From positions 1 to 47,975 of the IMG/VR virus record IMGVR_UViG_3300027852_000008: a DNA stretch of 47,975 bases. One strand, written 5' to 3'. Shown one piece after another: positions 2,153 through 41,590 of this stretch. A program made the translations under genes and the position numbers. The notes beneath the pieces were generated by a model. That model made no database searches. It was not told the origin of the DNA and saw only the letters and a program-made list of their open reading frames with translations. The DNA is from a virus. Numbering within the stretch: position 1 is the first letter of the stretch; each line of letters starts with the position of its first letter.

Positions 2153-2174
2153 TTAAGAAAAGTCAATTATTGAC
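2153..2174 (+). promoter_or_regulatory. Conserved palindromic element, copy 1 (TTAAGAAAAGTCAATTATTGAC)
   Basis: Covers the portal stop codon, 20 nt upstream of the scaffold ATG. Carries the invariant TAAGAAAAGTCA arm plus GTCAA-N3-TTGAC. Confidence 0.7.
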
Positions 2175-3966
2175 TATTTCCCTTGTTAATTTTTGCCATC
2201 TCAAGTTCATACTCCCTTTGCATTCTAAGCTCATTAGCCTGTTGTACTTTCATCTTAACAGTAAAAGGTAAGTCAATGTAATCCATAATAATTTCAGGTG
2301 GAATTGTACCAGGATTGTTCCTTCCAAACTCCATAAGCATTGCAGCAATTGATTGCCTTAATGTAACATTTTCTGCACTCTCATCTATTACCATATCAAA
2401 CTCACCAGCAGATATGTCATTAAACCCTTCAACTTGTGGATTCATCTGATCATTAATCTGCATCAGTTGCTGACCCTTCTCACCCTCAATTCTTACCATA
2501 GTAGGATAATCTACATACTGTTGTACTAAGGAAAGTAATTGTTTACCTCCTTGAATCCTGCTCTTCCTAAAACCATTAAATAAGATATACAATACAGCAA
2601 TACTACTTTCTAACCTTGACCTAGCTGTAACTCCAGGTTCTCTTGAGGATGTCTGTATACCCATAAGTGGATCCTGTGCACCTGAAACATTCTTCATAGA
2701 TTCAATATACACATTATCTAAAACACTATACACATTACTTATTTGTGGTTGATCTGAAAACTTAACTCTATCAAGTTTACCGTCAGCCATCTCAAGTCTA
2801 AAGTTCGGTTCAGAGGAATGCTGCTCATATTCATCAACATTTAATATAGCATTAACCTCATGCATTAAGATACCTTTTGGAGAGGTCTGAAGAAGATGAG
2901 ATAATTGTCTTCTAAGTGTATTAAGTGCAACCTGTGGATCTTTCATCATAGTTGTTGCACTGAACCATCTATTCTCTTCTTCATTCTTATAAGCTCCATA
3001 TTGAATAAAGGGAATATCTTTATGATTATAAGGAGTCTCTCCCGACTCTAATATAACATCCCCAGAAAAGATTGCATAGTACATATAATCCATTCTAGTT
3101 TCAATAGACTGTAACTCTTGTCTAAGCACACTTCCATCTGGTAAAGGTATTCCTTCTCTTAAAGCATTTCTAAATTCAATCCACTCACTTCTTCTTAAAT
3201 GTTCAGGTTTACCTGTAAGAGGATTAATAAACCAGATAGCTGGTTCTCTCTTCCTATACCAACCTTCTACTATTCTATATAGATCATTAGACTCATCAAA
3301 GTATACTGGAGTATCTACTTGTCTATCTCCCTTAGCCATCCTAACAATTTCTTTATCAAACTCTGGCCAAGTAGCTTTAATAATATCTTCCTTAAACCAT
3401 TTATTAGCAAAGAAGTAATTAGAGTCAGACATATCTTGTTCAACAGAATTAGGATCAACAATGCAGTCTCTTCCAGGAAAACGCTTTGCTTTTATCTCTG
3501 GTCTAAAGGGATTATCAAAGTTAACAAAAAGATTTAAGAAAGATCTTCCACTCTTAGTAGAATGACTAAAACACTCCATCTCCTTATCAGATAAACCAGT
3601 AGTTGTTCTATAATGCTTAAATACTCCATTTATAACTTCAACTAAAGCCTCATCCTCTTTTCCTACTGGCTGCACATCTGGAACTTTCCTTATCTGTTCA
3701 GCCATACCTATTAACATATCAATCTTAGGCTTTACTTCATTATAAACAGTAGTTGGTCTCTTTTGAGCCTGTAACAAACTAACTACTTCAGGTTCATCCT
3801 GTTGACCAGCATAAAATTTATAATCTTCAGAAGCCTCTTCTCTCCAGTTAGTTTCTGGTGTAGAGTTCTCTCCATCTTGTAACCAAGTATCCAATTGTAG
3901 TAATAAGTCATCACTTCCCTTAGTACTACCTGGTCTAGACATATAGGTTGGAGCTGTTATATTCAT
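2167..3966 (-). CDS. Portal protein
   Basis: A 599-aa ORF immediately upstream of the scaffold and capsid genes. Size and synteny are typical of portals. No motif search was possible. Confidence 0.7.
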   Translation of the reverse strand: MNITAPTYMSRPGSTKGSDDLLLQLDTWLQDGENSTPETNWREEASEDYKFYAGQQDEPEVVSLLQAQKRPTTVYNEVKPKIDMLIGMAEQIRKVPDVQPVGKEDEALVEVINGVFKHYRTTTGLSDKEMECFSHSTKSGRSFLNLFVNFDNPFRPEIKAKRFPGRDCIVDPNSVEQDMSDSNYFFANKWFKEDIIKATWPEFDKEIVRMAKGDRQVDTPVYFDESNDLYRIVEGWYRKREPAIWFINPLTGKPEHLRRSEWIEFRNALREGIPLPDGSVLRQELQSIETRMDYMYYAIFSGDVILESGETPYNHKDIPFIQYGAYKNEEENRWFSATTMMKDPQVALNTLRRQLSHLLQTSPKGILMHEVNAILNVDEYEQHSSEPNFRLEMADGKLDRVKFSDQPQISNVYSVLDNVYIESMKNVSGAQDPLMGIQTSSREPGVTARSRLESSIAVLYILFNGFRKSRIQGGKQLLSLVQQYVDYPTMVRIEGEKGQQLMQINDQMNPQVEGFNDISAGEFDMVIDESAENVTLRQSIAAMLMEFGRNNPGTIPPEIIMDYIDLPFTVKMKVQQANELRMQREYELEMAKINKGNSQ

Positions 3967-3982
3967 CTATACAACCTCATAC

Positions 3983-4198
3983 TTATCTACAGTTATGACA
4001 TGAGGAACACTGCTTACAAACTACACCCTTACCCGTTGATTCTATAATCTCAATAGGAAACCGCATCTTTGTCAATTTTACAATAATAGGCTTCTCATAA
4101 GACTTAGAATAATCACAATGACGAAAAATTGTAGCTCCATCATCAAGTTGTAGAGGTGGAATAGTCTCATACTGTTTTATCTCATTGTCAAGATTCAT
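3983..4198 (-). CDS. Hypothetical small protein with C-terminal Cys cluster (CKQCSSCHNC)
   Basis: The ORF track gives 3983..4246. The internal ATG at 4198 has AAGGA upstream and avoids overlap with the small upstream ORF. The start is uncertain. Confidence 0.5.
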   Translation of the reverse strand: MNLDNEIKQYETIPPLQLDDGATIFRHCDYSKSYEKPIIVKLTKMRFPIEIIESTGKGVVCKQCSSCHNCR

Positions 4199-4212
4199 TT
4201 CTATCCTTAGTA

Positions 4213-4305
4213 CTACCTGGTCCAGGCGTTGGTAACCAAAGCCCAAAAACAGAGACCAAACACCAGAATGCCTAACAAGAAAATAATAGCCTCATCCCAT
4301 TTCAT
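4213..4305 (-). CDS. Possible 30-aa single-pass membrane peptide (MKWDEAIIFLLGILVFGLCFWALVTNAWTR)
   Basis: Found by hand because it is below the ORF-track cut-off. The ATG lies 1 nt after the stop of the upstream gene, with GAGGGAGA as RBS. It has a hydrophobic core. Confidence 0.3.
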   Translation of the reverse strand: MKWDEAIIFLLGILVFGLCFWALVTNAWTR

Positions 4306-4306
4306 A

Positions 4307-4777
4307 CTAATCTCCCTCTTCAGTAACCTCTCTCATAATCCTAAGAGTTTCTACATTAGCCTCTGCTACATTAACATCTCCATTGATATAAACATTAGCT
4401 GCTTGGACATTTGTCTTCTGAAGAGTTCCTGGTGGCACAGGTGCTGTCTTATTAAAATAATGAGAAACTTCGTTACTTTTTCCACTCTCCAGATGACCAT
4501 TATCATATGCTGTAAGTATCCAATATAAGGTAACATCTGTTACTGGCTCAATTGTAATAGTTACTGTCTCTGTTCCAATAGGTATACTTACTACAAAATT
4601 TGGACTTAACTCACCACCTATAACTTGTCCATCTGGAGTATCACTTTGGTACAATCTATAACCAGCTAGATCAAATTCAGTATTAGCATCCCATTCAAAG
4701 GTAAGCTCTTCAGCATGAACAAATACAACAAACATTAAACATATAGCCATACTTAGTAAAATCAAAAACTGTTTCAT
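4307..4777 (-). CDS. Secreted protein with Fn3/Ig-like beta-sandwich
   Basis: N-terminus MKQFLILLSMAICLMFVVFVHA|EE looks like a cleavable signal peptide. LTFEWDANTEFDLAGYRLYQSDTPDG resembles Fn3-type repeats. Confidence 0.6.
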   Translation of the reverse strand: MKQFLILLSMAICLMFVVFVHAEELTFEWDANTEFDLAGYRLYQSDTPDGQVIGGELSPNFVVSIPIGTETVTITIEPVTDVTLYWILTAYDNGHLESGKSNEVSHYFNKTAPVPPGTLQKTNVQAANVYINGDVNVAEANVETLRIMREVTEEGD

Positions 4778-4785
4778 ATTTTCTC

Positions 4786-5064
4786 CTATATACTGATTAG
4801 TTTTCTTCCCCCATTAACATCAGGAACAATACACACCCCAGGAATATAACACACTGCTTCAGAAACATTATCTCCTTGTTGAGTTGTAACTTGCACAACA
4901 CAACCTACTCCAGGTATCTCCATAGCTTTTGTTGATTTCATCCAACCTTCCTCTTTTGAAGATGCTTTACAAAGTAACTGAAACATATCTCCATCACCAA
5001 AAACAGTAAGATCTTTTACATTTTTCGATGCTCCAGAGATATCTGAATTATGTAATGTCTTCAT
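4786..5064 (-). CDS. Small conserved phage protein, function unknown
   Basis: 92 aa. The motif GWMKSTKAMEIPGVGCVVQVTTQQ recalls a small protein family seen in N4-like and other phages (memory only, low certainty). Confidence 0.6.
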   Translation of the reverse strand: MKTLHNSDISGASKNVKDLTVFGDGDMFQLLCKASSKEEGWMKSTKAMEIPGVGCVVQVTTQQGDNVSEAVCYIPGVCIVPDVNGGRKLISI

Positions 5065-5342
5065 TACTTACCTCCATTAAGATTATCCATTTTCTTAACC
5101 ATCCACAAAAGTCTCTCATCCACTCTGGCTAAGACAATACCTTGTTTTTGTTGTTCCTTCGTCAACTCATCAAATTTCTTTTCACCTCTTGCCATATCAT
5201 GATTTAAAGCCTCATGTATTGGTTCACAAGATGACTTATCAGCTTTCTTATTTAAAAACTTTAAACCTATTCCTACTACAGCTAATAAACTGACTCCAGT
5301 ACTTATTTCAGTAACCACATATACCTCACTAAGAAAAGTCAA
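5064..5342 (-). CDS. Membrane-anchored coiled-coil protein (holin- or i-spanin-like topology)
   Basis: One N-terminal TM segment (ISTGVSLLAVVGIGLKFL) followed by a charged helical tail. The tracked start is a TTG inside the conserved element, so the true start may be a downstream GTG. Confidence 0.5.
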   Translation of the reverse strand: MTFLSEVYVVTEISTGVSLLAVVGIGLKFLNKKADKSSCEPIHEALNHDMARGEKKFDELTKEQQKQGIVLARVDERLLWMVKKMDNLNGGK

Positions 5343-5350
5343 AAATTGAC
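5329..5350 (+). promoter_or_regulatory. Conserved palindromic element, copy 2 (CTAAGAAAAGTCAAAAATTGAC)
   Basis: Sits between the stop of ORF 5354..5644 and the start of ORF 5064..5342. Confidence 0.7.
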
Positions 5351-5353
5351 GTT

Positions 5354-5644
5354 TTAGGTTCCTAATCTAACTCCAACTGTTCCAGAAGTATAATCACCTG
5401 TTTTAACACCTATCCTATGTAATACTCCTGGTTCTGTATTTCTAAGAACTTCTTCTGTATCTGTAGTATATGCCTTAACATCTGTCCAACTTCCCACATC
5501 AGGAAAATAACGTTGTAGTGTCACTGTTGCTACCCAGGAAGCAACTGTATATACTGAAACATTTAAATAACCTCCTCGTCTTGGTTCAATTTCTAAAGAA
5601 CCTGTAAAGTTATTCTCTGCAGCAATATCTTCTTGTACATGCAT
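5354..5644 (-). CDS. Hypothetical virion-module protein
   Basis: A 96-aa ORF packed in the operon. No recognisable motif. Confidence 0.6.
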   Translation of the reverse strand: MHVQEDIAAENNFTGSLEIEPRRGGYLNVSVYTVASWVATVTLQRYFPDVGSWTDVKAYTTDTEEVLRNTEPGVLHRIGVKTGDYTSGTVGVRLGT

Positions 5645-5647
5645 TAA

Positions 5648-5866
5648 TTATCTCCTTATTTCTAATTCTACACAAGCAAGTATAAGAGCATCAAGTATAG
5701 TTACCCTGTTTTTTATCCTATTAATACCAGACTTAAATCCTGCCTTATCAGCTAGAGCAGTATGAATTATAGTACCACAATCACACTCTGACGTTTCCAA
5801 TACACCTAGCTCTATAATAAGTTGATCTCTTTGTTGCTCAAGACTTTCCTTTGTTATACCTTCCAT
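5648..5866 (-). CDS. Hypothetical protein
   Basis: A 72-aa ORF whose start and stop abut the neighbouring genes. Confidence 0.55.
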   Translation of the reverse strand: MEGITKESLEQQRDQLIIELGVLETSECDCGTIIHTALADKAGFKSGINRIKNRVTILDALILACVELEIRR

Positions 5867-6213
5867 TATAATATCTCCCTTGCAGCAAACCTACTATCAA
5901 TTATTTCTTGTGGTATAGCTGCTCCACTTGAAGGGTCGTTATAACGTGTTACATACCAATCAGTTTCATTAAGATATGATAAGGCATTTTCCATAAGTTC
6001 TTCTTCACTAGGAGGATGTGCTTGATCGTAAGTATCCTTTTCTTCCTGTGTTTTTTCTGTTACAACCACACCAACAAGTTTTAAATAATACCAAGGAATA
6101 TCCATTACCTCATCCCAATTTGGCACTGGTTCAATAGCTCCTTCAGGAAGAGGACTCCAACCTACCAAAAGATCAACTCCATCTTGTCTTTCCATAGCAT
6201 AACGCATTACCAT
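5866..6213 (-). CDS. Putative tail-fibre assembly chaperone
   Basis: 115 aa, directly downstream of the fibre-like gene. The C-terminal pattern LNETDWYVTRYNDPSSGAAIPQEIIDSRFAAR resembles phage tail-fibre assembly/chaperone proteins. Confidence 0.45.
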   Translation of the reverse strand: MVMRYAMERQDGVDLLVGWSPLPEGAIEPVPNWDEVMDIPWYYLKLVGVVVTEKTQEEKDTYDQAHPPSEEELMENALSYLNETDWYVTRYNDPSSGAAIPQEIIDSRFAAREIL

Positions 6214-7835
6214 ACCTCCAACAATTGCTCTGTAATCCTTTCAGGAGCAGGAGTTGGGCTTATCTTAGTCCTTGAAGAAAGTAAATTCCTTTGTCCTCCA
6301 ATGCTCCTTACATCTCTATCATAAAAGTTAATGTTGTTGGTTGTTGCAACTGCTGTAGAATTATAGGCATTGATTCCTATTCCATAAGAAGCATCCACAT
6401 TTCTAAGCTTACAACTAAATACCTCTGCTTCCTGATTAACCTGCAGTCCCCATTCATACGGTGGTGTTAAAGACCTTGTAGGTAATAATTGAGGTAAACT
6501 CACTTCACTACCAATTACTGTCATATTATCAAATTCAAACATCATATTAGGAATAGCAGCATATCTACGAAATTGCCAAGAAGTAAGATAGCTCTCTACT
6601 AGTAACTCCCTTGCCTTAAAACCTTCCACAAACCTGGGATTCAAAACACTACTGTACTCCTCACTAAACAAAATAACCTTATTATATGTTATATAATCCA
6701 TACCAGCTGAATGTATTCTACTTAACCTATATGAAGGTATAGTAAGTAACCCAAGTCCGGATGGACGATAAGACCAAAGTATAAGTGTCCCTTCTCCAGG
6801 ATCAACCACCAACTGTGCTCCAGATCCAGAGGCATAGGAGAAGAAAAATTCCACTGAATGTTTAAACACATGAACTCCATCTCCAAACTTTATTGTAACC
6901 ACAGCAGCAGGGAAATCATTAATATCTATTTTGAATGTACTCTCACACCACATTTGAGCAGTGTAGGTATCACAATCAAAGGTTGCAGCAGTAATAGCAG
7001 CGTTATTCTCTATTAATAACAATTTGTAGAATTTATGATTACCTGCTTTTAATGAACACACTTGGTTACTACTTAGGTATTCGATCTCAACTTCACAGGG
7101 ATCAACATACTCCCTCGCATCTATCTCAGCCGTAGCATCCTGTAAAACATACCTCATGTATCTAACAGAGATGACACCTCCAGTACCAATAACACTATTA
7201 CTCTTATACCTATACCACAATCTCCCTGTTCCAGTAATCTCTCCTGTGACCTCAACAGTAGCAGCATTCCCGCTAACATCTACATCACATATGATTGCTC
7301 CATTTGCCTGAATGTCAAGTATCCCAGATACATTAAGAGTCTGTGTAACATTAGCCACACCCAACCTTGTTCCAGTGAAGACATACTCCCCACTTATTGT
7401 CAGATGCTGAAAACTAGCTCCACTTAACTGATTAAGCTGGTATGTTTTAGTCTTTCCAGAGAAGATACACTCGGGATCTTTACCTGTACCGGTTCCAACT
7501 GAAAAACTTCCTCCAGTATTTAACCAATTTCCCTTAAATTCTATAGTATGATCAGGTCCTCCTGTTGGCCCAAAATACCCTGCGGCCATAGAAAAGTCCC
7601 CGTGAATAACAGCATTTGCACTGATCAACAACATCTCAGTCATAGTAACAAGTAAAGACATATTATTGCATACAATATCTGAAGTAGGAAAGCAAACCAC
7701 ATTCCCATTACCATCAAAGAACACATCATCACTTGCAGTAGGAATTCCAGCTCCACCGGCTCCACCACTTGTTAGTGACCAGTTAGCAGCAAGGTGCCAA
7801 TTTGTATCTGTACCTACCCAGTATCTATTAGCCAA
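6207..7835 (-). CDS. Putative tail fibre/spike (beta-helix-like)
   Basis: 542 aa. The N-terminus MANRYWVGTDTNWHLAANWSLTSGGAGGAGIPTASDDVFFDGNG is a motif I associate with beta-helical surface and fibre proteins. It is rich in G/T/S/N. Confidence 0.5.
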   Translation of the reverse strand: MANRYWVGTDTNWHLAANWSLTSGGAGGAGIPTASDDVFFDGNGNVVCFPTSDIVCNNMSLLVTMTEMLLISANAVIHGDFSMAAGYFGPTGGPDHTIEFKGNWLNTGGSFSVGTGTGKDPECIFSGKTKTYQLNQLSGASFQHLTISGEYVFTGTRLGVANVTQTLNVSGILDIQANGAIICDVDVSGNAATVEVTGEITGTGRLWYRYKSNSVIGTGGVISVRYMRYVLQDATAEIDAREYVDPCEVEIEYLSSNQVCSLKAGNHKFYKLLLIENNAAITAATFDCDTYTAQMWCESTFKIDINDFPAAVVTIKFGDGVHVFKHSVEFFFSYASGSGAQLVVDPGEGTLILWSYRPSGLGLLTIPSYRLSRIHSAGMDYITYNKVILFSEEYSSVLNPRFVEGFKARELLVESYLTSWQFRRYAAIPNMMFEFDNMTVIGSEVSLPQLLPTRSLTPPYEWGLQVNQEAEVFSCKLRNVDASYGIGINAYNSTAVATTNNINFYDRDVRSIGGQRNLLSSRTKISPTPAPERITEQLLEVW

Positions 7836-7836
7836 C

Positions 7837-8430
7837 TTATCCTCGCTTCATCAGTACAACATCTAATTTTAAGGAAACAGTTTGAGCCACTACAAAATCA
7901 AACACAAAATAAACGTCCTTACCACTCTCAGCATTCCAAAGCAGCACATCGTGGAGTTCAGAAACCTTTGACACACCTGTATTAATCACATGACTTCCAA
8001 CATTGTTCTCAGCAACCATTGTATCAGCAATAGTTTTTAATCTTGCCATTTCATCATCATCTAAGAATATTATTAAGTCATTTGGAGAGAAGTCAGTCTG
8101 GTCATCAGGAGTGATATTTGCATCACTCCCTGTAGTAGCAACCTCAAGTTCAGTATAGACAAGTTTTGTATCGCTTCTGTAAAAAACATCCTCTCCTGTT
8201 TTAGCCGTCTTATTAAAGAATGAATATGTTCCCCAAGCTGCAAAACCAGCTCCAGGATCTGCATCAACATACAGCCTGGCTAAAACAAGTTGTTGAACCT
8301 CTTCATCTAAGGAGATGGTAACTCCCTCAGACACAGAAGCAGTAAAATCTAAATCATATGAAACAAGTGTCTTTGGTTTCCATGAACCTATATTATCTAA
8401 CTCTTCCGTATCAGGATTTAACTTAAACAT
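7837..8430 (-). CDS. Hypothetical virion-module protein
   Basis: A 197-aa ORF tightly packed between fibre-like genes. Confidence 0.6.
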   Translation of the reverse strand: MFKLNPDTEELDNIGSWKPKTLVSYDLDFTASVSEGVTISLDEEVQQLVLARLYVDADPGAGFAAWGTYSFFNKTAKTGEDVFYRSDTKLVYTELEVATTGSDANITPDDQTDFSPNDLIIFLDDDEMARLKTIADTMVAENNVGSHVINTGVSKVSELHDVLLWNAESGKDVYFVFDFVVAQTVSLKLDVVLMKRG

Positions 8431-8431
8431 T

Positions 8432-8863
8432 TTACCATCCTACAGCTCTATTTGTCCAGCTTGTTATTCTAACTCTCTTCCTCGTCCAATTACCACTTGT
8501 CCAATCTATCCTAGTAATATACCAATCAGTATCACCATCAGCAGCGGTAAGACTAATATTTCTACCTATATAAATTGGGTTATCATCGCTGTCATAATCA
8601 ACTTGAGTATTCTTCCAGTAATAATTTGCTAATAAAGCTTCCACATCTCCCATAGAAACAGTAAGATCACCAGAAGCTTCAACAATAGCTTGTTGACCTT
8701 TTATCCAAGTTGTCAAATCAGTATCATAAACATGAACAGCTACAGGTATAAGAGGTAAACCTGAAAAGTCTATTGACTTTAATATCCTCGTTTCACCTGT
8801 ATCCTGATCTACAACACCTAGGCAAGGATGTCTATTTCTATCCTGTGGTACATTCTCATCCAT
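8432..8863 (-). CDS. Hypothetical virion-module protein
   Basis: A 143-aa ORF, W-rich at the C-terminus (ITRIDWTSGNWTRKRVRITSWTNRAVGW). Confidence 0.6.
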   Translation of the reverse strand: MDENVPQDRNRHPCLGVVDQDTGETRILKSIDFSGLPLIPVAVHVYDTDLTTWIKGQQAIVEASGDLTVSMGDVEALLANYYWKNTQVDYDSDDNPIYIGRNISLTAADGDTDWYITRIDWTSGNWTRKRVRITSWTNRAVGW

Positions 8864-9183
8864 TAAGGTACTCTTATTGTCATATTTCTAAGTTCAGTAG
8901 TTTTTCTAATCATAGCAACTCTAATAGCAAATATTACATCAGCATAAGTATATCCCTTTCTTTGATACCACTTTTTCCTAAATCTTCTCTCCTTTAATAC
9001 AGCTTGAGCATGATCTATCACTCCATGCATAAATTCCTCATCGTCATAACAGACATATGATCCATCACTTAATGTTGTAGGATGAAGACTCTTAGACACA
9101 TCCCCATTCTTGTTTGCAATACTTATCTCTTTAAGAACAGCAAAAAATACTCTAGTCACAGTAATGCTCCTTAACATATTCAC
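8863..9183 (-). CDS. Hypothetical protein
   Basis: A 106-aa ORF. The tracked start is a GTG overlapping the glutaredoxin gene. A GTG at 9159 preceded by AAGGAG is an alternative start. Confidence 0.5.
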   Translation of the reverse strand: MNMLRSITVTRVFFAVLKEISIANKNGDVSKSLHPTTLSDGSYVCYDDEEFMHGVIDHAQAVLKERRFRKKWYQRKGYTYADVIFAIRVAMIRKTTELRNMTIRVP

Positions 9184-9430
9184 CTACATCTTCACCAAAG
9201 ACTTTTACAGCATTGTGATCATCATAACAATCCTTACCTATATACAATGCAGGAGTATCTATTTGACCTTTACTATTCCACATCTCAAGAAAACAAGCTA
9301 AACCTAAACCTTCCATTTCTTCCAGAGAAAACTCTTGCAAGTCTTCTATCTTATCATAAATACCTGCATTCTTAAAATCATCACACTTAACACAACCACT
9401 CTTACTAAATAATATTACGCTGTTTGCCAT
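9152..9430 (-). CDS. Glutaredoxin/NrdH-like redox protein
   Basis: 92 aa. The N-terminal beta-strand plus CxxC (ILFSKSGCVKCDDFK) is typical of the thioredoxin fold. It overlaps the terL 3' end by 16 nt. Confidence 0.6.
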   Translation of the reverse strand: MANSVILFSKSGCVKCDDFKNAGIYDKIEDLQEFSLEEMEGLGLACFLEMWNSKGQIDTPALYIGKDCYDDHNAVKVFGEDVGEYVKEHYCD

Positions 9431-10866
9431 GAGTTTTTCCCCATATAATCAGATTGTCTTGTTCTTCTAGCATTCCTTTTAACCTTTACTTTCTTCCAAA
9501 GCCTATTTGCAAATGCAGCTGCATATTCAGTATTACAAAGTGCATCTGCAATATTTGGAGAAGCAACTCCACGAGCTTTCATCTGTTTCTTAGACTCAAC
9601 AACAACACCTCCATGAACATTAAAGTCATAAGTAGGCATAGCCAATTCATTACAAAGCTCCTCTCCGTCATCATTATCAGGAAACCAATAAGCACCTTTC
9701 ATACAGTTATCTCTAACTCTCCACCATAACTCATCTCTCATTCTATCATACTTAGCTATGTCTGTGGATTTATTAGCTACATTAAGACCTATTGTATTAA
9801 GATGTCCATGCTTCATTAACCAATCAGTTACACCTGCACCAACTCCTATCTCATCAATTACTAAACCATCTGCATTTAGTTCTTGATAAGTTAGATTAAT
9901 ATGTCCACCAAGTGATATAGTATTAATACCTTGGAAGGAATCCCAGTCAAATATTTTTATACCTTTCCTTGGTAAGACAATGGATCTATCCTCACCATAT
10001 CTAGCTACATCAACACCAAGATATAATGGCTCATCCTCTGAGATCTCTGTCTCATTACCAAGACATTGCCTTGCCCAAGATAATGGTATGAGTGTTCTTT
10101 CATCTTCATGAGGAGGATTCCCTGCTACACGAACAGCAAAAACAGATGAGTCTTCACCATACTTATTCCTGAAGAAATCCACCATGCTATCTTCAACTAG
10201 ATTGGATTCTCTTGAATCCCAATGAAGCCTATTCCATTCTCCAGCTATCTTCTCAGAATAATGTGTATCATAGAAGTAACCGGAGTTCTTTGTCATATTA
10301 CCAATGAGTAAGCATTTATTATCCTCCTGTGTCATAGCACCTTCTAATGGTATAAACACAGGATCATTAATTCCAGATGCCTCATCACCTATAATCAAAA
10401 GATGATCCCCATGAAATCCAGCTAATGTTTCAGCTTGTTCCTCTTTAGACGCCTTGACTTGTGGAGAGATAGCTCTAATCCACCAATCCTTTGGAGCACT
10501 CTTATGAAAGAACTTATCTTTCTGATGTATGAACTCATCTTGAAGACGAGATTTTCTAAACCACTTAGCTAATTCAGCCCAATATATATCTTGAAGCTGT
10601 CTGTTTGTAGGTGCTGTTACAGGTATTTTTGCATAAGGTCTTGTAGTCATAAACCAGAGTGCAATCCACACTGCTAAGGCGTCCTTACCGCAACCATGGC
10701 CTGAACGGATTGTAAGCCTTCTGATGTGAGGTATCATCTCTAGAGCTTCTATTTGCTGATTACTTGGCTTTGCCCCAAGACATTCGTGTGCAAAAGCTAC
10801 AGCATTATCTGTCCAATCCTGTAGTTTACCAAGTACATTATAGTTTAGTTTTGTCTTTGTCTTCAT
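9415..10866 (-). CDS. terL: Terminase large subunit
   Basis: 483 aa with a Walker A-like GHGCGKDA, Walker B LLIIGDEASG, and the nuclease-domain motif LGVDVARYGEDRS. Confidence 0.9.
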   Translation of the reverse strand: MKTKTKLNYNVLGKLQDWTDNAVAFAHECLGAKPSNQQIEALEMIPHIRRLTIRSGHGCGKDALAVWIALWFMTTRPYAKIPVTAPTNRQLQDIYWAELAKWFRKSRLQDEFIHQKDKFFHKSAPKDWWIRAISPQVKASKEEQAETLAGFHGDHLLIIGDEASGINDPVFIPLEGAMTQEDNKCLLIGNMTKNSGYFYDTHYSEKIAGEWNRLHWDSRESNLVEDSMVDFFRNKYGEDSSVFAVRVAGNPPHEDERTLIPLSWARQCLGNETEISEDEPLYLGVDVARYGEDRSIVLPRKGIKIFDWDSFQGINTISLGGHINLTYQELNADGLVIDEIGVGAGVTDWLMKHGHLNTIGLNVANKSTDIAKYDRMRDELWWRVRDNCMKGAYWFPDNDDGEELCNELAMPTYDFNVHGGVVVESKKQMKARGVASPNIADALCNTEYAAAFANRLWKKVKVKRNARRTRQSDYMGKNSWQTA

Positions 10867-11112
10867 AATCTAACCTTATGGTTCTTCATAAAGAGAATCT
10901 ATCGCCTACACTACAGTCTTTTAGTTTTAGCTGAGCAGCTGCTTGCCTTCCCTAAATGAACCATAAAAAATACCACTTAGATGAAACACCATCCATAATG
11001 GGCGGGATTCCGCAATTTGAGTTCCTTACACATTTGAGATATAAGACTCTGTAGAATAAACAGACTCAAGTATAGTTTCATTCTACTGTATGATTGCGGA
11101 TACCCAAAAAAG
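10867..11112 (-). other. 246-nt untranslated leader upstream of terL with long-range stems (candidate cis-regulatory RNA or pac region)
   Basis: No ORF longer than 15 codons. TCCGCAAT (11008..11015) pairs with ATTGCGGA (11092..11099) and is extended by GGG/CCC. Nested pairings are GTAGAAT/ATTCTAC and TTGAGT/ACTCAA. Confidence 0.4.
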
Positions 11113-11134
11113 TTAAGAAAAGTCAATTATTAAC
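11113..11134 (+). promoter_or_regulatory. Conserved palindromic element, copy 3 (TTAAGAAAAGTCAATTATTAAC; one mismatch in the right arm)
   Basis: Overlaps the stop codon of the 51-aa ORF, at the 5' edge of the terL leader. Confidence 0.65.
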
Positions 11135-11285
11135 CTTTTTCCTTATAATCAAAAAGAACATCCAATACTCTTAGAACCTCATCATCCCATTCCTCTCCGG
11201 GATCAGCAATAGCTTTAAGAAGTAAGTTTCTTAATCCAGAAGCATAAAGTATCTTAGCTATATTCCAGTACAAACTAACCTTCAT
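11130..11285 (-). CDS. Hypothetical 51-aa protein (MKVSLYWNIAKILYASGLRNLLLKAIADPGEEWDDEVLRVLDVLFDYKEKG)
   Basis: Found by hand. The ATG at 11285 is preceded by CGGAGG. Confidence 0.45.
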   Translation of the reverse strand: MKVSLYWNIAKILYASGLRNLLLKAIADPGEEWDDEVLRVLDVLFDYKEKG

Positions 11286-11304
11286 ACAAACCTCCGTGTT
11301 TTAA

Positions 11305-13278: not shown

Positions 13279-13291
13279 TTAAGAAAAGTCA
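13279..13291 (+). promoter_or_regulatory. Half copy of the conserved element (TTAAGAAAAGTCA, no right arm)
   Basis: The invariant 12-mer is present. The downstream sequence GAAATATCC is not palindromic. Confidence 0.5.
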
Positions 13292-13878: not shown

Positions 13879-13962
13879 AAACAATTACACAAACATATTT
13901 GTACCAGTTAGCCTTTAGGCTCCAATCCGTCTTATCCAAGCTAATATTATTTAAGTTAAAAA

Positions 13963-13984
13963 GTCATTTTTTGACTTTTCTTAC
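13963..13984 (-). promoter_or_regulatory. Conserved palindromic element, copy 5, the only inverted copy (minus strand GTAAGAAAAGTCAAAAAATGAC)
   Basis: The plus strand reads GTCATTTTTTGACTTTTCTTAC, 21 nt upstream of the ATG at 14006. Confidence 0.65.
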
Positions 13985-18614: not shown

Positions 18615-18636
18615 ATAAGAAAAGTCAAAAATTGAC
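18615..18636 (+). promoter_or_regulatory. Conserved palindromic element, copy 6 (ATAAGAAAAGTCAAAAATTGAC)
   Basis: Lies 23 nt upstream of the nuclease ATG. Its right flank CTTTTTTCTGAA roughly mirrors the left flank. Confidence 0.7.
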
Positions 18637-18659
18637 CTTTTTTCTGAAAGGAATAAGAA

Positions 18660-21726: not shown

Positions 21727-23031
21727 ATGAAAGATGAAAGATTTTTCTTTGTTGATCCTTTAACTGTTAAGATAAGAGAGGGATTAGATAGATATAGGAA
21801 AGACGTTAAAAAATTAAACAAATTAAAAGAGTCTATAACAAAGTTTAAACAATTTCATCCTGTCTTAGTAACTAAAGAACTAGAACTTATTTCCGGAGGC
21901 AGAAGACTAGCTGCATGTATAGCTTTAGGTAGAGAAGTTATGTGTATGGACAGGGGTGAATTAACTGATTTAGAGATTAGAGAAATAGAATTAGAAGAGA
22001 ACTTGCAAAGTGAAGATCTTTCTCCTGCAGATGAAGCTATAGCAACAGCTGATTTACACAACTTAAAACAAGAAATATATGGTAAATCTGTTTCGGGTAG
22101 ACAAGGCGGTTGGACTTTAGAACAAACAGCTGAAACAATTTCTATGTCAAAGGGTACTGTTTTAGATGCCATAGAAATAGCTGCTGCAGTTGAAGAGTTT
22201 CCTGAGCTTAAGGATTGTAAGACTAAAACGGATATAAAACGAGCTGCTAAGATGATACAGAGGACTATGCTCAGAGCTCAAAAAGTAGAGGAGCATGAAA
22301 ATAATATAAAAGGGATAAGAGATACAGTTAAGGTAGAGTTAGAAGATGTCTTAGTTCACATGAAAACGATACCAGATAATCACATAGACCTATTACTAAC
22401 AGATCCTCTGTATGAAATACAAGTTGATGAAATAAAAAGAGGAAGTGGAGATGTTCCTGGAGGCTTATCAAATGTGGGATATAAGATCAAGGATGATAAA
22501 ACAGACTTCAGTGTATTAAAACAATTAGCTTTAGAGTCTTACAGGTTTACAAAGACAACATCCTTAGCTTATATATTCGTAGCTCCGGAGCATTTTCATA
22601 CAGTAAGAAATATATTCATCCATGCTGGTTGGAATTGTCATATAAAACCTTTAATATGGTTCAAACCTAATGCAGGTCAGTGTAATGTTCCTCTTAAGTG
22701 GCCAGCAAGTAGTTATGAAATGATCCTATATGCTAGAAGGTCGGAAGCACAGTTGATTAAACTTGGTCAAAGAGATGTATTAACTTATAGCACAGTTACA
22801 GGTACAAATAAATTACATGATTATGAGAAACCAGTAGAGTTATTAGAAGATCTTATTTTAAGATCTGTCTATCCTGGTAGTACATTATATGATCCCTTTA
22901 TGGGAAGTGGTTCATCTATCGTTGCGGGTATGAGACAAAAGTTAATTTGTTTTGGCTGTGATTATAACAAGGATGCTTATAATGCTACTTTAGCTAGAGT
23001 TAATGAAGAGGTAAATGGATATGAAAAATGA
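21727..23031 (+). CDS. ParB-like nuclease domain fused to a beta-class N6A/N4C DNA methyltransferase
   Basis: The N-terminus HPVLVTKELELISGGRRLAACIALG is ParB/Srx-like. Motif IV LLLTDPLYE precedes motif I LYDPFMGSGSSIVAG. Confidence 0.8.
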   Translation: MKDERFFFVDPLTVKIREGLDRYRKDVKKLNKLKESITKFKQFHPVLVTKELELISGGRRLAACIALGREVMCMDRGELTDLEIREIELEENLQSEDLSPADEAIATADLHNLKQEIYGKSVSGRQGGWTLEQTAETISMSKGTVLDAIEIAAAVEEFPELKDCKTKTDIKRAAKMIQRTMLRAQKVEEHENNIKGIRDTVKVELEDVLVHMKTIPDNHIDLLLTDPLYEIQVDEIKRGSGDVPGGLSNVGYKIKDDKTDFSVLKQLALESYRFTKTTSLAYIFVAPEHFHTVRNIFIHAGWNCHIKPLIWFKPNAGQCNVPLKWPASSYEMILYARRSEAQLIKLGQRDVLTYSTVTGTNKLHDYEKPVELLEDLILRSVYPGSTLYDPFMGSGSSIVAGMRQKLICFGCDYNKDAYNATLARVNEEVNGYEK

Positions 23032-23218: not shown

Positions 23219-23393
23219 AATAGAGATGAATAAAGATTTAGAAATATTAGTTATGGAGATTAATCAATTAATAGTAACCTTTGATAAAACATATGATACT
23301 TGTTTAGCTAAGTCAATACAAACAGTTGCTGGAGTACTCCTCTCTATTTTAGAAGGTAAACGAAGAATAATAAAAGAAACAAAAAAGGATTAA
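23211..23393 (+). CDS. Hypothetical protein
   Basis: The tracked start is 23193. The GTG at 23211 lies 9 nt after GAGGAGG. The start is uncertain. Confidence 0.5.
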   Translation: MDKIEMNKDLEILVMEINQLIVTFDKTYDTCLAKSIQTVAGVLLSILEGKRRIIKETKKD

Positions 23394-23411
23394 GAAAAGT
23401 CAAAAGTTGAC
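23390..23411 (+). promoter_or_regulatory. Conserved palindromic element, copy 7 (TTAAGAAAAGTCAAAAGTTGAC)
   Basis: Overlaps the stop codon of the upstream ORF, 27 nt upstream of the DNA polymerase ATG. It is the same 22-mer as copy 8. Confidence 0.7.
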
Positions 23412-23438
23412 TCAAAAACTTAATAACTAGGAGAAATT

Positions 23439-31489: not shown

Positions 31490-31510
31490 AGCCCCCTACC
31501 ACAGGGGGCT
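31490..31510. terminator. Bidirectional intrinsic terminator between the convergent blocks
   Basis: AGCCCCCT-ACCAC-AGGGGGCT forms an 8-bp GC-rich stem. It is flanked by AAAAAGAAAAG on the left, which is a U-tract for the minus-strand transcript. Confidence 0.8.
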
Positions 31511-31551
31511 ATACAATATAAGCACCTTAGTTATTCTATCTCACCTCCTTA

Positions 31552-34500: not shown

Positions 34501-36198
34501 CTCTCCTCTAGTCACCTGTCCAGCTTCATATAAATCAAGCCTTTCGTTTGGTTTCATTTTAAGAAGAGCTTTAACCTTATCATTTGGTGTCATGGCAGAA
34601 AAGTCAAAAGTCGACTCTTTCCCTGATATTAATTTAACAGCATCAGTTACTTTATTTTCCATCTTAACTACTTGTGCTTTATCTTTCTCTGCACGTATGA
34701 GACTTCTCGCTGCTTGGTAGGTCATGTCTTTAAAGTCATCATCTTTATAACCAAGTTCTGTTAAAGATTCCTTAGTTTTATTTCCTATCCCCTGAGATTT
34801 TTTAGTTTTAACTGCTACTGGTTTAATTTTATTTATAGCTGCAATAATATCCTCTTGAATTTTGAATGTAGATTCAACAAGCTTCTCTTCAGCACTTGTT
34901 TCTATAACAGCAGTAGCAGGATCCTTACCTTGCTTTATTTTAGTAAAGATTCTATCTGTATTCTCTATCTTATCAAAACTCTTAGGACTCATAAGATCTA
35001 GCATCTCATTGCTTGATTTATTTGTTCCAGATGCTAGTATATCAGTGGTTTCTTTTGGTGTAGGTTTAGCTGTCCTTGCTTTATACAACTCCTCTTGTTT
35101 AACAAACTCTTTTTCAGCAATACCAACTCTCTTCTTCTTAACCAAGTTATCTAATGTTTTAGCAACATCTAATCTACCTTCACCAAGCTTCTTAGCATAT
35201 TCTTCTGCAACCTTTTCCTCTTGTCTATGTGCTTTGTTCCAAGTCAATAACATTGTAGCTTTTGGATCTCTCTTAACGGCTTCAGCTATAACTTCTTTAC
35301 TATAACTATTCTCTTGTAATCCTTTCATCATAGCTTTTAGTTTACTTGTAGCTCCTGGAAACACACCCTTAAAAGCTTTAGCTCCCCCATACAAAGCTCC
35401 ACCACTAATAGCCATTTCTAATCCAAGAGCTTTTATAGGATTATCTTTAGCCCACTGTGTCTGTTCAATTCTATTCTTTGTAAAATCAAATGCTGCAAAA
35501 CTTGGAACAGCCATTAGTGTTGCACCAACTAGCTTAGGAACAAATCCAGGAGTTCTCATCATTCTTCTACCAAGAAATGTTGCTGCACCTTTAGCTGCAA
35601 CCTTTGGGAAGAGTTTCCTTGCAGCCAATTTCACTCCCATATGACTTCCCATAAGAGCAGCTGAAAAGCCTCCTCCTATAGTAGCTGCACCTACTGCTGA
35701 AGTATAACCTGGTCTAAATTCTTTTTGTTCCCATTCTTCCTGTCCAGGTAACTCTCTTACTCCAGATTTAAACCTTGGTATTACATGCCAACCTTCCTTC
35801 CTATCCCAAGCATGTTGTCTTATAGCCTCTTCATTATTCCTTATATTCTTAGTATAAGAAGCTAATATTAACTCTTCTGGTTTAAAACTTGTTAATCTTT
35901 CATCACTAAGCATCCTATTATATTCATCTAATATTGTTTGACCAAGTTCTTTCCTTGGATCACCTTCAGGAATAGCTTTACTCACACTCTGTAATGGACC
36001 TAAACTTGATCTACTTTTTACCTTAACCCCTTCCGGAACATGCTGTGTCATCAAAGATGCTACCATCTTTTCAGCTTTAAGAGGATCATAAAGAAACTTT
36101 GCTCTTTGCTCAGCTGTTTTAGTTTCCCTCTTTACTTTATCTTTTTCAATTCTATCTAAGGATGTTCTTTCCTTTAATAAAAGACCTCCAACATTCAT
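31552..36198 (-). CDS. 1548-aa terminal virion-module protein (candidate ejected/internal protein)
   Basis: The largest ORF and the last gene of the late operon. It has a Gly-rich hydrophobic segment (GAATIGGGFSAALMGSHMG...LVGATLMAVPSFAAF) and a long K/E-rich helical middle region. No catalytic motif was recognised. Confidence 0.6.
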   Translation of the reverse strand: MNVGGLLLKERTSLDRIEKDKVKRETKTAEQRAKFLYDPLKAEKMVASLMTQHVPEGVKVKSRSSLGPLQSVSKAIPEGDPRKELGQTILDEYNRMLSDERLTSFKPEELILASYTKNIRNNEEAIRQHAWDRKEGWHVIPRFKSGVRELPGQEEWEQKEFRPGYTSAVGAATIGGGFSAALMGSHMGVKLAARKLFPKVAAKGAATFLGRRMMRTPGFVPKLVGATLMAVPSFAAFDFTKNRIEQTQWAKDNPIKALGLEMAISGGALYGGAKAFKGVFPGATSKLKAMMKGLQENSYSKEVIAEAVKRDPKATMLLTWNKAHRQEEKVAEEYAKKLGEGRLDVAKTLDNLVKKKRVGIAEKEFVKQEELYKARTAKPTPKETTDILASGTNKSSNEMLDLMSPKSFDKIENTDRIFTKIKQGKDPATAVIETSAEEKLVESTFKIQEDIIAAINKIKPVAVKTKKSQGIGNKTKESLTELGYKDDDFKDMTYQAARSLIRAEKDKAQVVKMENKVTDAVKLISGKESTFDFSAMTPNDKVKALLKMKPNERLDLYEAGQVTRGEWREVVRTVRKDVESKEAYKAYNKELDVAAKEVSDVEIASIAEVVSTTATEEQVKVLDRIGMMKVAKAKKDLEKLGVTTKEGLDKATEVTIPKLSNTTEAVTFGRVASKEQVELLKAKRQELLDEVVLLGKDKTVDTLQKRGNLATEAQMYREAIESSEGEEYLADIVSDTGFLDKLKNGLLAAGSLIVLSDVLGPEDAEAGMVDQVAGRTLTKLTASIIKNTPKKSVTNLIKSMEGAGLLPKEGTKFFLGEPMRQLKIIPDISSIARRAILHPAIQSLASPYRVAHHYFGVSKEGLETMTNPMVQWASGQTAAMYNSKEGLRVLRNILDDVPNYQSSIGEVRQSMKPMIDEFFVPMQQRSYHQYSAKHFRSLADKELNKITKGKKYRKKTEDAAIATAEALENKALFHEQAFSDTNSMFKSYTKTWDKTIKPLAAQHSGVRMFLAAEDTAKFESYPFLEGMLSFEEKLAVSRIKEMMEIYGVRTAEAGHKIITKRPYMHHAAHPDADFKRAENVVTEGNLFKDYPPPMAKLHSRVAGYKPMMPDMEYSVQKYLPDINMRLEVSDFWRMGRADGWHAFKQSDFVQKNSGMRKFFEAMEDGFKPQYKEGVDKAMERFYAVEVMRLLSFSPSVTFKHYLKTVADLRIFGWEGAKVYPKAIGSFSRLELERAGGKEALKKAGISLTVEDEAVKAMNEQGSLWRTISDATPFSMADSKWDKVVEKINKYGGAPVAWIERFDRGFSTLCALKMASKKGMTPAQAAYGVYDTIIKTNFLSGNMNPSWLRNPKIRLMMMFQGTPFKIFEQRLLTYGRAGKAVGRAGKVTLEQLRNLSRDVKEGEHAFKWELIKGALNSEKDLFGTPVTRQVMREVLTVGGIVGLGEKVLDVDLLHHFIHPPFIKADSRDIAVSASPIVQASWRTWKQKDEEDRDFILSTFFQEWFGRANKGVPVPVNLNKALRLSKGDIPEMYKESELKYLFGVPTPHHD

Positions 36199-41046: not shown

Positions 41047-41563
41047 GAATTGCTTCTATCTGATCTAAGCTAAAATCTCCACCATAAGTATTCTCAACCT
41101 TTATATCATAGTATCTTCCAACAACTTCTCTTTGTCCATCAAACACTCCACCATGTTGTTTATTACTTGTCTTAATAGAATCCAAAACATACTTATGTTC
41201 TACTCCATCATCAGGTGTTAGATAGAAGTTTAAGTCTTCACTAGTTTCATAACCTACATATATCTTTCTAAATCTCTTCTCATTAGCAATACCAAGGTCT
41301 GTTTTAGGAAAGATAACAAAGGCATCTATATGACCATCTTGATCTGTCTCACCATCTTCTAAAGAAAACAAACCATGTTCATTAGCACCAAGATAACCAT
41401 TGTTAATCTTACACATAGAGTTAAAATTAAATGCTCTATATTGTGTAGCAGCTAATCTTTCCAGAGATAAAGCCAAACTAAAATAGTGCACACCTGGTAC
41501 AGATTGCCTCAACCTTAAATCACTGGTTACATGTACGTGATAGCTTTCATTTACATCTACCAT
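41012..41563 (-). CDS. Putative tail tubular/adaptor protein (T7 gp11-like size and position)
   Basis: 183 aa. It has no SD, and its ATG lies 5 nt downstream of conserved element copy 8. Confidence 0.45.
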   Translation of the reverse strand: MVDVNESYHVHVTSDLRLRQSVPGVHYFSLALSLERLAATQYRAFNFNSMCKINNGYLGANEHGLFSLEDGETDQDGHIDAFVIFPKTDLGIANEKRFRKIYVGYETSEDLNFYLTPDDGVEHKYVLDSIKTSNKQHGGVFDGQREVVGRYYDIKVENTYGGDFSLDQIEAILVVKGRKPSEV

Positions 41564-41568
41564 AATTT

Positions 41569-41590
41569 TTAAGAAAAGTCAAAAGTTGAC
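41569..41590 (+). promoter_or_regulatory. Conserved palindromic element, copy 8 (TTAAGAAAAGTCAAAAGTTGAC)
   Basis: Lies between the stop of the SPRY fibre gene (41594) and the ATG at 41563. The stem is extendable to 9 bp (AAAAGTCAA/TTGACTTTT). Confidence 0.7.

Follow-up and report, generated by a model that had tools for sequence, protein, structure and literature searches.

About a dozen 13-bp palindromes, the OB operators, are dispersed in intergenic regions of plasmid RK2, many of them far from promoters, and among the chromosomal relatives of the RK2 system the specificity that separates ParB from Noc is set by a few residues of the recognition helix. KorB of RK2 is described as a sliding clamp of the ParB family dependent on cytidine triphosphate (CTP) and as a repressor (PMC11790492). 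A 2025 survey reports fusions of ParB-CTPase domains with N6_N4 methyltransferases as enriched in phages and prophages and as being among the commonest phage ParB fusions, and assigns them neither a function nor a DNA target (PMC12704722); a phage ParB-like protein that activates a thymidine dioxygenase was the subject of a 2026 paper (PMC13229309). Dispersed dyad repeats have been described in Cluster O mycobacteriophages, which carry more than 30 copies of the 17-bp sequence TGTTCGG-N3-CCGAACA, of unknown function and with a dimeric binder predicted, and which encode a ParB-like domain protein, gp90 (PMC4351075). Microbacterium phages of Cluster EG have 18-bp inverted repeats, likewise of unknown function, located 14 to 22 bp upstream of start codons (PMC7302621). 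Here, we describe a family of inverted repeats with the core GTCAA-N3-TTGAC in IMG/VR virus record IMGVR_UViG_3300027852_000008; the window, i.e., the whole stretch of DNA analysed, comprises 47,975 nucleotides. The repeats are family-wide and intergenic, and they are candidate double-stranded docking sites, similar to parS or an operator, of the phage's own ParB-methyltransferase with its helix-turn-helix (HTH) domain, a reading that we hold to be evenly poised between right and wrong.

Inverted repeats at the gene boundaries

The 12-mer TAAGAAAAGTCA is present in eight exact copies, seven on the plus strand and one on the minus strand, compared with 0.06 expected from dinucleotide-preserving shuffles, none of which (0 of 100) reached eight. 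The sequence-only reading of the window had estimated the chance expectation of this invariant 12-mer at well under one, in agreement with the computed value, and its coordinates and sequences for all eight copies, including the identity of the 22-mers at 23390 and 41569, were recovered as first read. It had counted eight copies of an arm plus a hairpin, one of them listed as a half copy; the full inverted repeat applies to seven, and the copy at 13279..13291 is only a half site. The GTCAA-N3-TTGAC repeat is complete in these seven of the eight copies, two of which have one core mismatch. When up to one mismatch was allowed, eight matches to GTCAA-N3-TTGAC were found in the genome versus 1.66 expected, seven of them being the elements and the eighth the near-copy listed below. 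No halo of copies with one mismatch surrounds TAAGAAAAGTCA, and allowing up to two mismatches adds only matches at chance level. A covariance model run over the genome recovered the seven full sites and nothing else significant, missing the half site. The individual sites and one near-copy are as follows.

2153..2182: site 1, invariant arm on the plus strand, TTAAGAAAAGTCAA-TTA-TTGAC TATTTCC, 19.7 bits on the minus strand; between the portal gene, whose stop codon lies within the spacer, and a scaffold-like gene whose start is 21 nt away, both on the minus strand
5329..5358: site 2, CTAAGAAAAGTCAA-AAA-TTGAC GTTTTAGG, 20.5 bits; between two small minus-strand late open reading frames (ORFs), just upstream of the next Shine-Dalgarno (SD) sequence and start codon
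11113..11142: site 3, TTAAGAAAAGTCAA-TTA-TTAAC CTTTTTCC, one core mismatch, 26.8 bits on the minus strand; flanked by a 51-aa ORF on one side and, on the other, by a 250-nt non-coding gap that leads to the large terminase gene
13279..13291: half site, plus strand, TTAAGAAAAGTCA, lacking an inverted partner on its right-hand side; located in the control region, beyond the plus-strand gene 12637-13143
13957..13984: site 5, invariant arm on the minus strand, reading TTAAAAAGTCA-TTTTT-TGACTTTTCTTAC on the plus strand, 21.9 bits on the plus strand; between the first small early gene (13729-13878) and the 14006 ORF
18615..18644: site 6, ATAAGAAAAGTCAA-AAA-TTGACCTTTTTTCT, the most symmetric copy, 37.4 bits; between the conserved 122-aa gene and the PD-(D/E)XK exonuclease gene, a junction occupied in 15 of 61 relatives
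23390..23414: site 7, TTAAGAAAAGTCAA-AAG-TTGAC TCAAAAAC, holding the stop codon of the upstream ORF, 12.4 bits; in the interval between the ParB-methyltransferase and UDG-PolA genes, which is occupied in 20 of 70 relatives
41569..41596: site 8, TTAAGAAAAGTCAA-AAG-TTGAC TTTTTACC, 24.2 bits; between the gene for a 709-aa SPRY-domain virion protein and that for a 183-aa virion protein
34595..34623: near-copy GTCAAAAGTCGAC, i.e., GGCAGAAAAGTCAA-AAG-TCGAC TCTTTCC, 13.4 bits, E value 0.31; within the 1548-aa ORF

The near-copy, being degenerate and intragenic, is probably non-functional. The half site has an imperfect everted partner, TGACCTTTTTGTCTTA, at 13246-13261, 17 nt upstream and with the order of the arms reversed; this pair is located just after a G+C-rich hairpin (13232-13250) that trails the plus-strand gene 12637-13143. 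An ORF called on the minus strand at 13018-13254 is probably spurious, as that gene occupies the region. Directly upstream of site 6 there is a perfect 12-bp stem, AACAGCAGTACA-N11-TGTACTGCTGTT (18575-18609). The 250-nt non-coding gap from site 3 to the TerL gene (10867-11113) shows long-range complementarity, GTATCCGCAAT ... ATTGCGGAATCC, and could represent a structured RNA, a late promoter region, or a packaging signal.

Only 5.5% of the genome is non-coding according to the gene list of this analysis, and seven of the eight element centres fall inside this share; the value of 8.9e-11 is the chance only of all eight centres being non-coding. The centre of site 1 lies on the portal stop codon, at the 3' edge of the ORF. 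The earlier placement of all eight copies between ORFs is confirmed. Sites 1, 2, and 3 extend into the end of the preceding ORF, covering its last codons or its stop codon, and the distance from element to start codon is 11 to 27 nt, with the exceptions of site 3 (250-nt gap) and the half site. The count of seven plus-strand copies out of eight also stands, but not its claimed independence from gene direction: the bias arises mostly from the direction of transcription, the invariant arm being gene-proximal in five sites, with one site symmetric and one reversed. A sigma70 -10 box was reported missing, and indeed none is located 16 to 18 bp away on either strand of any copy. A sigma70 promoter using TTGAC as a -35-like hexamer was accordingly rejected as an explanation, the SD sequence and start codon also being too close.

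To place the element in a wider context, a 21-nt degenerate pattern was searched in IMG/VR, yielding 12 contigs, at least 10 of which encode homologues of this phage's proteins; the motif is specific to this phage family. Related loci were then collected with the portal, a tail protein, and alignments of TerS, PolA, and the methyltransferase as queries. Related IMG/VR contigs number well over 100 and most of them bear the element, so that the search of related phages suggested by the sequence-only reading found it family-wide. With the covariance model, 161 matches at E <= 0.01 were obtained in 100 loci, and three near-complete relatives, reconstructed from overlapping loci, have 8 to 15 sites each in both early and late blocks. 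The relatives' copies often form a longer and more symmetric palindrome, with the consensus AGAAARGTCAA-N3-TTGACYTTTCT, and spacer and flanks drift across relatives while the core stays constrained. In nearly all cases the element takes up the space from a stop codon to the SD sequence that follows, in the order stop, element, SD, start; it is found upstream of TerL, portal, and capsid genes, often directly upstream of the SD sequence of the major capsid gene. Which junctions are occupied varies among relatives, the commonest being the TerS-TerL junction, the junction of the 187-aa and 210-aa genes, and both junctions flanking the methyltransferase gene; the latter two are the early junctions most often occupied (28 of 75 and 20 of 70). 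The element typifies a large family of uncultured phages of approximately 48 kb, with more than 120 relatives in IMG/VR, and could serve to recognise its members.

Several further features of the related loci were observed. Many of the contigs (loci L058 to L132) start 0.2 to 2.5 kb upstream of the TerS-like gene, suggesting physical genome ends (cos or a direct terminal repeat) in the control region. Loci L134, L141, L181, and L182 have an additional repeated hairpin, GCTGC-N3-GCAGC, partly in tandem beside a GTCAA site (L134, 4700-4730). Two family members are found in metagenome-assembled genome bins, one labelled 'Bacillota bacterium' (L171, JAUWAD010000005.1), where the 47,434-bp contig is a whole phage genome, and one labelled 'Candidatus Woesebacteria' (L172, LCBU01000033.1); both labels are probably binning artefacts and unreliable as hints of the host.

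Core variants and the ParB-methyltransferase

Other lineages of the family possess different cores, namely, TACAC-N3-GTGTA, (C)GTGAA-N3-TTCAC(G), GTTTAA-N3-TTAAAC, and CGTAA-N3-TTACG, as well as GTTAA-N3-TTAAC (5 copies versus 0.06 expected, about 80-fold) and ATTAA-N3-TTAAT (4 copies versus 0.2 expected, 20-fold). The architecture is constant across these variants, with 5 to 6 bp on either side of a 3-bp A/T-rich spacer. Specifically, in the GTTTAA lineage the core is swapped in every copy, and the flanks AAGAAAG and ACTG are kept. That all copies in a genome are re-keyed together points to a phage-encoded reader with changed specificity, and the invariant half-sites, the free A/T-rich spacer of fixed length, and the occurrence in both orientations represent operator anatomy for a symmetric DNA-binding protein. 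Since the GTCAA core is conserved across phages whose core proteins are 40 to 60% identical, the reader should be a core protein.

The conserved early proteins comprise the 122-aa protein, the exonuclease, Sak4, the 173-aa protein, a 74-aa Zn-ribbon protein, the ParB-methyltransferase, PolA, and a helicase-like protein. For a specificity scan, loci were labelled by their dominant core and seven core early proteins were aligned (2,311 columns; the 74-aa protein lay outside). The scan sought columns in which all four variant-core lineages carry residues absent from 27 GTCAA-lineage sequences. Exactly one of the 2,311 columns qualified, residue 146 of the ParB-methyltransferase, which is I, V, L, or Y in the GTCAA lineages and S, R, E, and S in the TTTAA, CGTAA, TACAC, and GTGAA lineages, respectively. 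Residue 147 is among 15 columns in which at least three of the four variant lineages differ, acidic or small residues being replaced by K, K, and Q. The 122-aa and 173-aa proteins had no fully discriminating column in the scan. In a control with four random GTCAA lineages as pseudo-variants, 0.88 columns qualified on average; as the count is unremarkable, the argument rests on the place of the column (about 12 of the 2,311 columns) and on a later tally. When the HTH was masked, the variant-core lineages were nested among the GTCAA lineages. The tally covered all loci with the gene and was made by hand, per helix variant and ignoring kinship, with the following result.

Residue 146 hydrophobic: the most repeated palindrome is GTCAA in 25 and a different one in 9
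Residue 146 polar or charged: it is GTCAA in 1 and a different one in 10

Two lineages beyond those of the scan agree with it: 'R-Q' pairs with GTTAA and 'R-E/A' with CGTAA in proteins that are 50% identical, and 'S-Q' pairs with ATTAA and, in a 43%-identical protein, with TTTAA.

The protein singled out by the scan is encoded in the early block.

21727..23031, plus strand: ParB-methyltransferase gene, 434 aa; core early gene, proposed cognate binder of the repeats

It features an N-terminal ParB-CTPase domain, an HTH, and a beta-class N6A/N4C DNA methyltransferase (about residues 200 to 434). The ParB motifs GGRR (box II) and ENLQR (box III) are invariant in sets of 13 and 40 homologues. A profile of the 13 homologues matches the N-terminal domains of Spo0J, ParB, and Noc at 1e-11 to 7e-14 and a DpnA-like adenine methyltransferase at 6e-18, and among the matches listed precomputed Pfam assignments of PF02195 plus PF01555 are present in nearly all of at least 120 homologues. 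AlphaFold2 was used to predict the structure, giving a model with a mean predicted local distance difference test (pLDDT) of 86.2 and a predicted template modelling score of 0.70. The modelled HTH consists of helices 131-137 and 142-157 with pLDDT values of about 90, and according to this model residues 146 and 147 occupy positions five and six of its second, recognition-type helix. A Foldseek search aligned residues 1 to approximately 195 with constructs of ParB and Noc comprising the N-terminal and DNA-binding domains (7bnk, 7nfu, and 6sdk; 191 to 195 columns), and the remaining part with CcrM, M.BceJIV, M1.HpyAVI, MboIIA, and RsrI. Several of these methyltransferases are dimeric in their solved structures. 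The HTH also has a weak match to the Pfam Rrf2 winged HTH (E value 1.4e-4, below the Pfam cut-off). Among the core early proteins, the ParB-methyltransferase is the only one in which an HTH was recognised.

We infer that the ParB-methyltransferase binds the repeats. Two HTH domains of a dimer would read the GTCAA and TTGAC half-sites across the 3-bp A/T-rich spacer, with the flanking AGAAAR adding affinity on at least one side, and the methyltransferase domain may stand in for the missing C-terminal dimerisation domain of ParB. What binding would bring about, methylation in cis or regulation in the manner of KorB, is conjecture at a further remove. Two options are the likeliest. In one, the ParB module would load at the 8 to 15 dispersed sites and slide as a nucleotide-dependent clamp, carrying the fused methyltransferase along the phage genome in cis; in the other, it would resemble KorB in blocking or regulating at the boundaries of genes. 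The first option, in which the loader-clamp would bring a methyltransferase of low specificity onto the phage chromosome only and thus provide self-restricted, genome-wide anti-restriction methylation, is tentative and appears rather unlikely to us. If it were true, the host chromosome would be spared, no long recognition sequence would be needed, and a lineage would re-key itself through one or two substitutions in the recognition helix, accompanied by changes in all of its sites; it suggests a way for a mobile genome to aim an epigenetic enzyme at itself. If the repeats are cognate sites, the role and target of ParB-methyltransferase fusions become directly testable, with the sites, the predicted specificity residues 146 and 147, and natural re-keyed pairs at hand (GTCAA, TTTAA/ATTAA, CGTAA/GTTAA, GTGAA, and TACAC).

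A number of observations weigh against assigning the repeats to this protein. The placement is strictly intergenic, from stop codon to SD sequence, which a loading site does not require and which hints at some function in gene expression or at the RNA level. One arm is invariant and the other degenerate, with the gene-proximal arm conserved 48:14 in late operons, an inequality that a symmetric dimer does not predict; it arises partly because the upstream stop codon sits in the other arm. Together, position and arm inequality favour some link to expression. Furthermore, some relatives form perfect hairpins of 12 to 14 bp, and the pooled covariation statistics look strong. Concerning the protein, the HTH is recognised from the modelled fold and the weak Rrf2 match, without a match to ParB-HTH sequences, and the canonical C-terminal domain of ParB is absent, the methyltransferase forming the C-terminal part. 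Concerning the scan, one qualifying column is not unusual by count, and small, fast-evolving early proteins, which a different binder might be sought among, lay outside it. The groups L142/L200 and L143 have a hydrophobic residue 146 and yet other cores, their helix being otherwise changed too, and L223 (T) and L236 (A) carry GTCAA. Both the place of the scan column and the tally ignore kinship, and the proposed link of protein and site is purely correlative.

As an operator for a phage dimeric regulator, the element had previously been attributed to one of two other proteins. The class of protein, a dimeric phage DNA-binding protein, is the one favoured here as well, but the two candidates named, an Arc-like ribbon-helix-helix (RHH) protein (17759-17953) and an HTH-like ORF (30667-30858), were rejected because neither has a detectable homologue in 170 related loci, whereas the element is conserved across the family. 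The 122-aa, 173-aa, and 74-aa Zn-ribbon proteins were likewise tried as binders and dropped, Pfam searches being uninformative, as were PDB profiles for the 122-aa and 74-aa proteins.

Alternative explanations of the repeats

The alternative that survives best, in itself unlikely, is that a different dimeric DNA-binding protein, of phage or host, uses the repeats as operators or roadblocks, and that the correlation with the methyltransferase reflects shared ancestry. Such a protein would account for the same operator-like anatomy, and the ordinary number of discriminating columns and the exceptions to the residue-146 rule agree with it; for the analogous 7+3+7 repeats of Cluster O actinophages, the authors name three candidate DNA-binding proteins (PMC4351075). 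However, the RHH protein and the HTH-like ORF are absent from relatives that keep the element, the ParB-methyltransferase has the sole HTH recognised among the core early proteins, and a host factor would leave the lineage-specific cores unexplained.

The explanation ranking next, which we also consider improbable, is an intercistronic RNA stem-loop. It would serve for processing, for stabilising 5' or 3' ends, or for weak attenuation, or it would be bound by an RNA-binding protein, and so set the relative expression of neighbouring cistrons. It is supported by the stop-to-SD placement in early and late operons, with the relatives' copies upstream of TerL, portal, and capsid genes, and by the 12- to 14-bp stems of relatives, whose mean folding energy is -9 to -10 kcal/mol. 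The element hairpins of this genome have energies of -5.4 to -8.2 kcal/mol with z-scores of -3.0 to +0.1, and three of the seven are no better than shuffles. A comparison of the folding of the two strands in 82 site clusters from the relatives' loci revealed a slightly stabler sense-strand hairpin in late operons (37 versus 21 clusters, p 0.018), whereas in early blocks the antisense strand folds better (15 versus 7). Both orientations with respect to transcription occur, early blocks being mixed (10:14). Moreover, the conserved stem and free loop are the reverse of most RNA-protein hairpin recognition, and no match was found in Rfam.

An RNA hairpin had initially been favoured on the basis of G.U-compatible variants and the pooled covariation, which exceeded that of all shuffles. 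The variants include TTAAC; the wobble counts, 53 on the sense and 40 on the antisense strand, gave no clear preference for either. Compensatory covariation was then analysed within genomes by an ungapped permutation of arms within loci (43 loci, 161 perfect-core sites): at position k5, next to the core, 90 pairs were observed compared with 92.8 expected, and pairing at the outer positions was below expectation. This removes the pooled covariation and indicates lineage-specific half-site preferences rather than selection for pairing, and with the signal erased the RNA hairpin was rejected. The repeats are symmetric in sequence rather than in selected structure.

With respect to transcription termination, the elements were not flagged in a terminator scan, and in relatives it is the SD sequence, not a run of U's, that comes after the full stem. 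Terminators and attenuators were discarded in view of the weak energies, compared with -15.9 kcal/mol for a real terminator of this genome, and by the gene context. This confirms the initial view that the element is too weak and too conserved for a generic terminator, and makes the attenuator role that had been among its proposals unlikely, as the relatives' element often lies directly upstream of the major capsid gene, where a terminator would be counter-productive. For the strand-specific nick or processing sites also proposed in the sequence-only reading, no support emerged.

Far less probable is a signal in single-stranded DNA, i.e., an N4-like hairpin promoter or a primase or primosome (ssi-type) priming site on one strand. 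N4 promoters have a 5- to 7-bp stem, a 3-nt loop, and conserved loop purines, and are used by a 3,500-aa virion RNA polymerase (PMC4496689). In geometry the repeats match N4 early promoters: the stem has 5 bp, the loop 3 nt, and on the template strand four A's separate the hairpin from the putative start (PMC4496689). No canonical primase was recognised in the genome, and in both blocks the strand that folds better is more often the late-sense one (52 versus 28 clusters). It may be added that the late-sense strand is the antisense strand in early blocks. On the other hand, no RNA polymerase was found in the genome or in the conserved gene set, consensus sigma70-type promoters head both blocks, the loop bases vary, within-genome covariation is missing, and the strand effect is weak and absent in this genome itself. 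The N4-type promoter proposed earlier is thus not supported despite a strikingly similar geometry, while the accompanying remark that no RNA polymerase is recognisable agrees with searches of the large ORFs against PHROGs, Pfam, and PDB. Three ORFs were considered as cryptic RNA polymerases and rejected: searches of PHROGs, Pfam, and PDB gave no signal for the 1548-aa ORF, which has just two close homologues, and the 542-aa and 588-aa ORFs were found in only 1 and 3 related loci, respectively. A genome-strand polarity related to single-stranded DNA or the lagging strand was also discarded, being weak across relatives and absent in this genome, where GC skew tracks transcription.

Least probable of all are selfish or recombinogenic intergenic repeats, similar to repetitive extragenic palindromes or to PeSLs, that would spread by recombination, mark module boundaries, and have no dedicated binder: site positions do turn over among relatives, with only some junctions commonly occupied, and a Sak4/exonuclease single-strand annealing system is encoded, but the core is under purifying selection with spacer and flanks drifting, its replacement is coordinated over all copies of a genome, and no transposase or RAYT-like gene was found.

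Genome layout and comparison with known systems

The first and last 127 bp of the window (1-127 and 47849-47975) are identical, indicating a complete circular assembly with a unique length of 47,848 bp; the assembly is cut within the gene that directly follows that of the major capsid protein. The G+C content is 35%, and the genome contains no tRNA. No DNA-level relative of this phage was found among GenBank phages, and its PolA and portal are at most 28% identical to their counterparts in cultured phages. The genes form two transcription blocks, both headed by consensus sigma70-type promoters.

12250 to 261, wrapping to 47932 to 31552, minus strand: late block, with TerS-like, lysozyme-like, TerL, portal, scaffold-like, major capsid, and virion protein genes
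13729 to 31482, plus strand: early block, with genes for the Arc-like RHH protein, PD-(D/E)XK exonuclease, Sak4, ParB-methyltransferase, and UDG-PolA, and for the DUF3987 helicase-like protein, thymidylate synthase, and DHH phosphoesterase
12281-12309, minus strand: perfect TTGACA-17-TATAAT promoter ahead of the TerS-like first late gene
13611 and 13645 (13611-13673), plus strand: two strong promoters of the early block
14619-14646, plus strand: perfect TG-extended promoter within the early block
31487-31515: canonical terminator between the convergent early and late blocks, closing the late block

The late promoter looks constitutive, and one may ask by what means expression is timed. The terminator, read on the minus strand, is GCCCCCU-GUGGU-AGGGGGC (-15.9 kcal/mol) followed by UUUUCUUUUU. 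Canonical terminators are rarer than in shuffles (2 versus 9.6 expected, positions 1-20000 scanned). Upstream of the early promoters, at 13400-13530, there are six direct repeats CTTGTAACT(A/C)A.., approximately 20 nt apart and adjoining an A/T tract at 13340-13375, which could be origin iterons or an operator array. Among the ORFs scanned, no RNA polymerase, sigma factor, integrase, repressor, or ParA was recognised, nor was a canonical primase, the 'primase' ORF encoding the DUF3987 helicase-like protein. The family A DNA polymerase (23439-25781) has an N-terminal domain of the UDG superfamily (Pfam UDG, E value 8e-25) followed by exonuclease and polymerase domains. The 122-aa basic, core-conserved protein (18194-18562) and the 168-aa control-region protein (12637-13143) share a G(V/I)xQKLxD motif; their similarity is weak (BLASTP E value 0.011), neither has a Pfam match, and the 122-aa protein has no PDB match either. 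SD usage and promoters would suit a Gram-positive-like host.

Among described systems, N4 promoters resemble the repeats in stem and loop sizes and in the run of four A's, the geometry of N4 P2 being strikingly similar. N4 differs in having only three, confined to the early region, and its polymerase and loop purines are absent here. The stoperators of Cluster A phages are asymmetric, strictly oriented with transcription, and bound by the prophage repressor of temperate phages. Like them, the present repeats are many copies of an invariant word of 12 to 13 bp in short gaps of long operons, but their core is symmetric, they occur in both orientations, and no integrase or repressor was recognised in the ORFs scanned. 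The repeats of Clusters O and EG share the invariant inverted arms of 7 to 8 bp, the 2- to 3-bp A/T spacer, a copy number from about 8 to over 30, and the location in short gaps near starts; the sequences, hosts, and phage families are unrelated, so that the likeness defines a descriptive class only. Besides, one third of the Cluster O sites are intragenic, and co-variation of protein and site has not been reported for either cluster. The approach used here could be extended to these unexplained dyad repeats.

The ParB-methyltransferase and its putative sites do not constitute a ParABS partition system, because neither a ParA nor a ParB C-terminal domain is present; no ParA-like match was obtained among the ORFs of 180 to 300 aa scanned against PHROGs or Pfam. 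By analogy, the closest mechanistic relatives would be KorB/OB, ParB/parS, and Noc with its Noc-binding sites (NBS). ParB-parS and Noc-NBS have in common with the phage system the GGRR and ENLQR boxes, an HTH of ParB/Noc fold, and multiple short palindromic sites. They differ in that the phage lacks ParA and the C-terminal domain and has a 3-bp spacer between the half-sites, that its sites are all intergenic whereas parS and NBS are often intragenic, and that no role in segregation would be expected, as the phage looks virulent. KorB resembles the phage protein in its N-terminal CTPase domain followed by an HTH and in its dispersed intergenic palindromes on a mobile replicon. Unlike the phage protein, KorB possesses a domain for dimerisation at its C-terminus, is partnered by KorA, and carries no enzyme; here a methyltransferase is fused, and the replicon is a phage without a ParA/IncC partner. 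Finally, the protein is exactly a PF02195 plus PF01555 fusion of the surveyed kind (PMC12704722). In the literature searched, no description of cognate sites of ParB-methyltransferase fusions was found; relative to the survey, the dispersed candidate cognate site and the correspondence between recognition helix and core are new.

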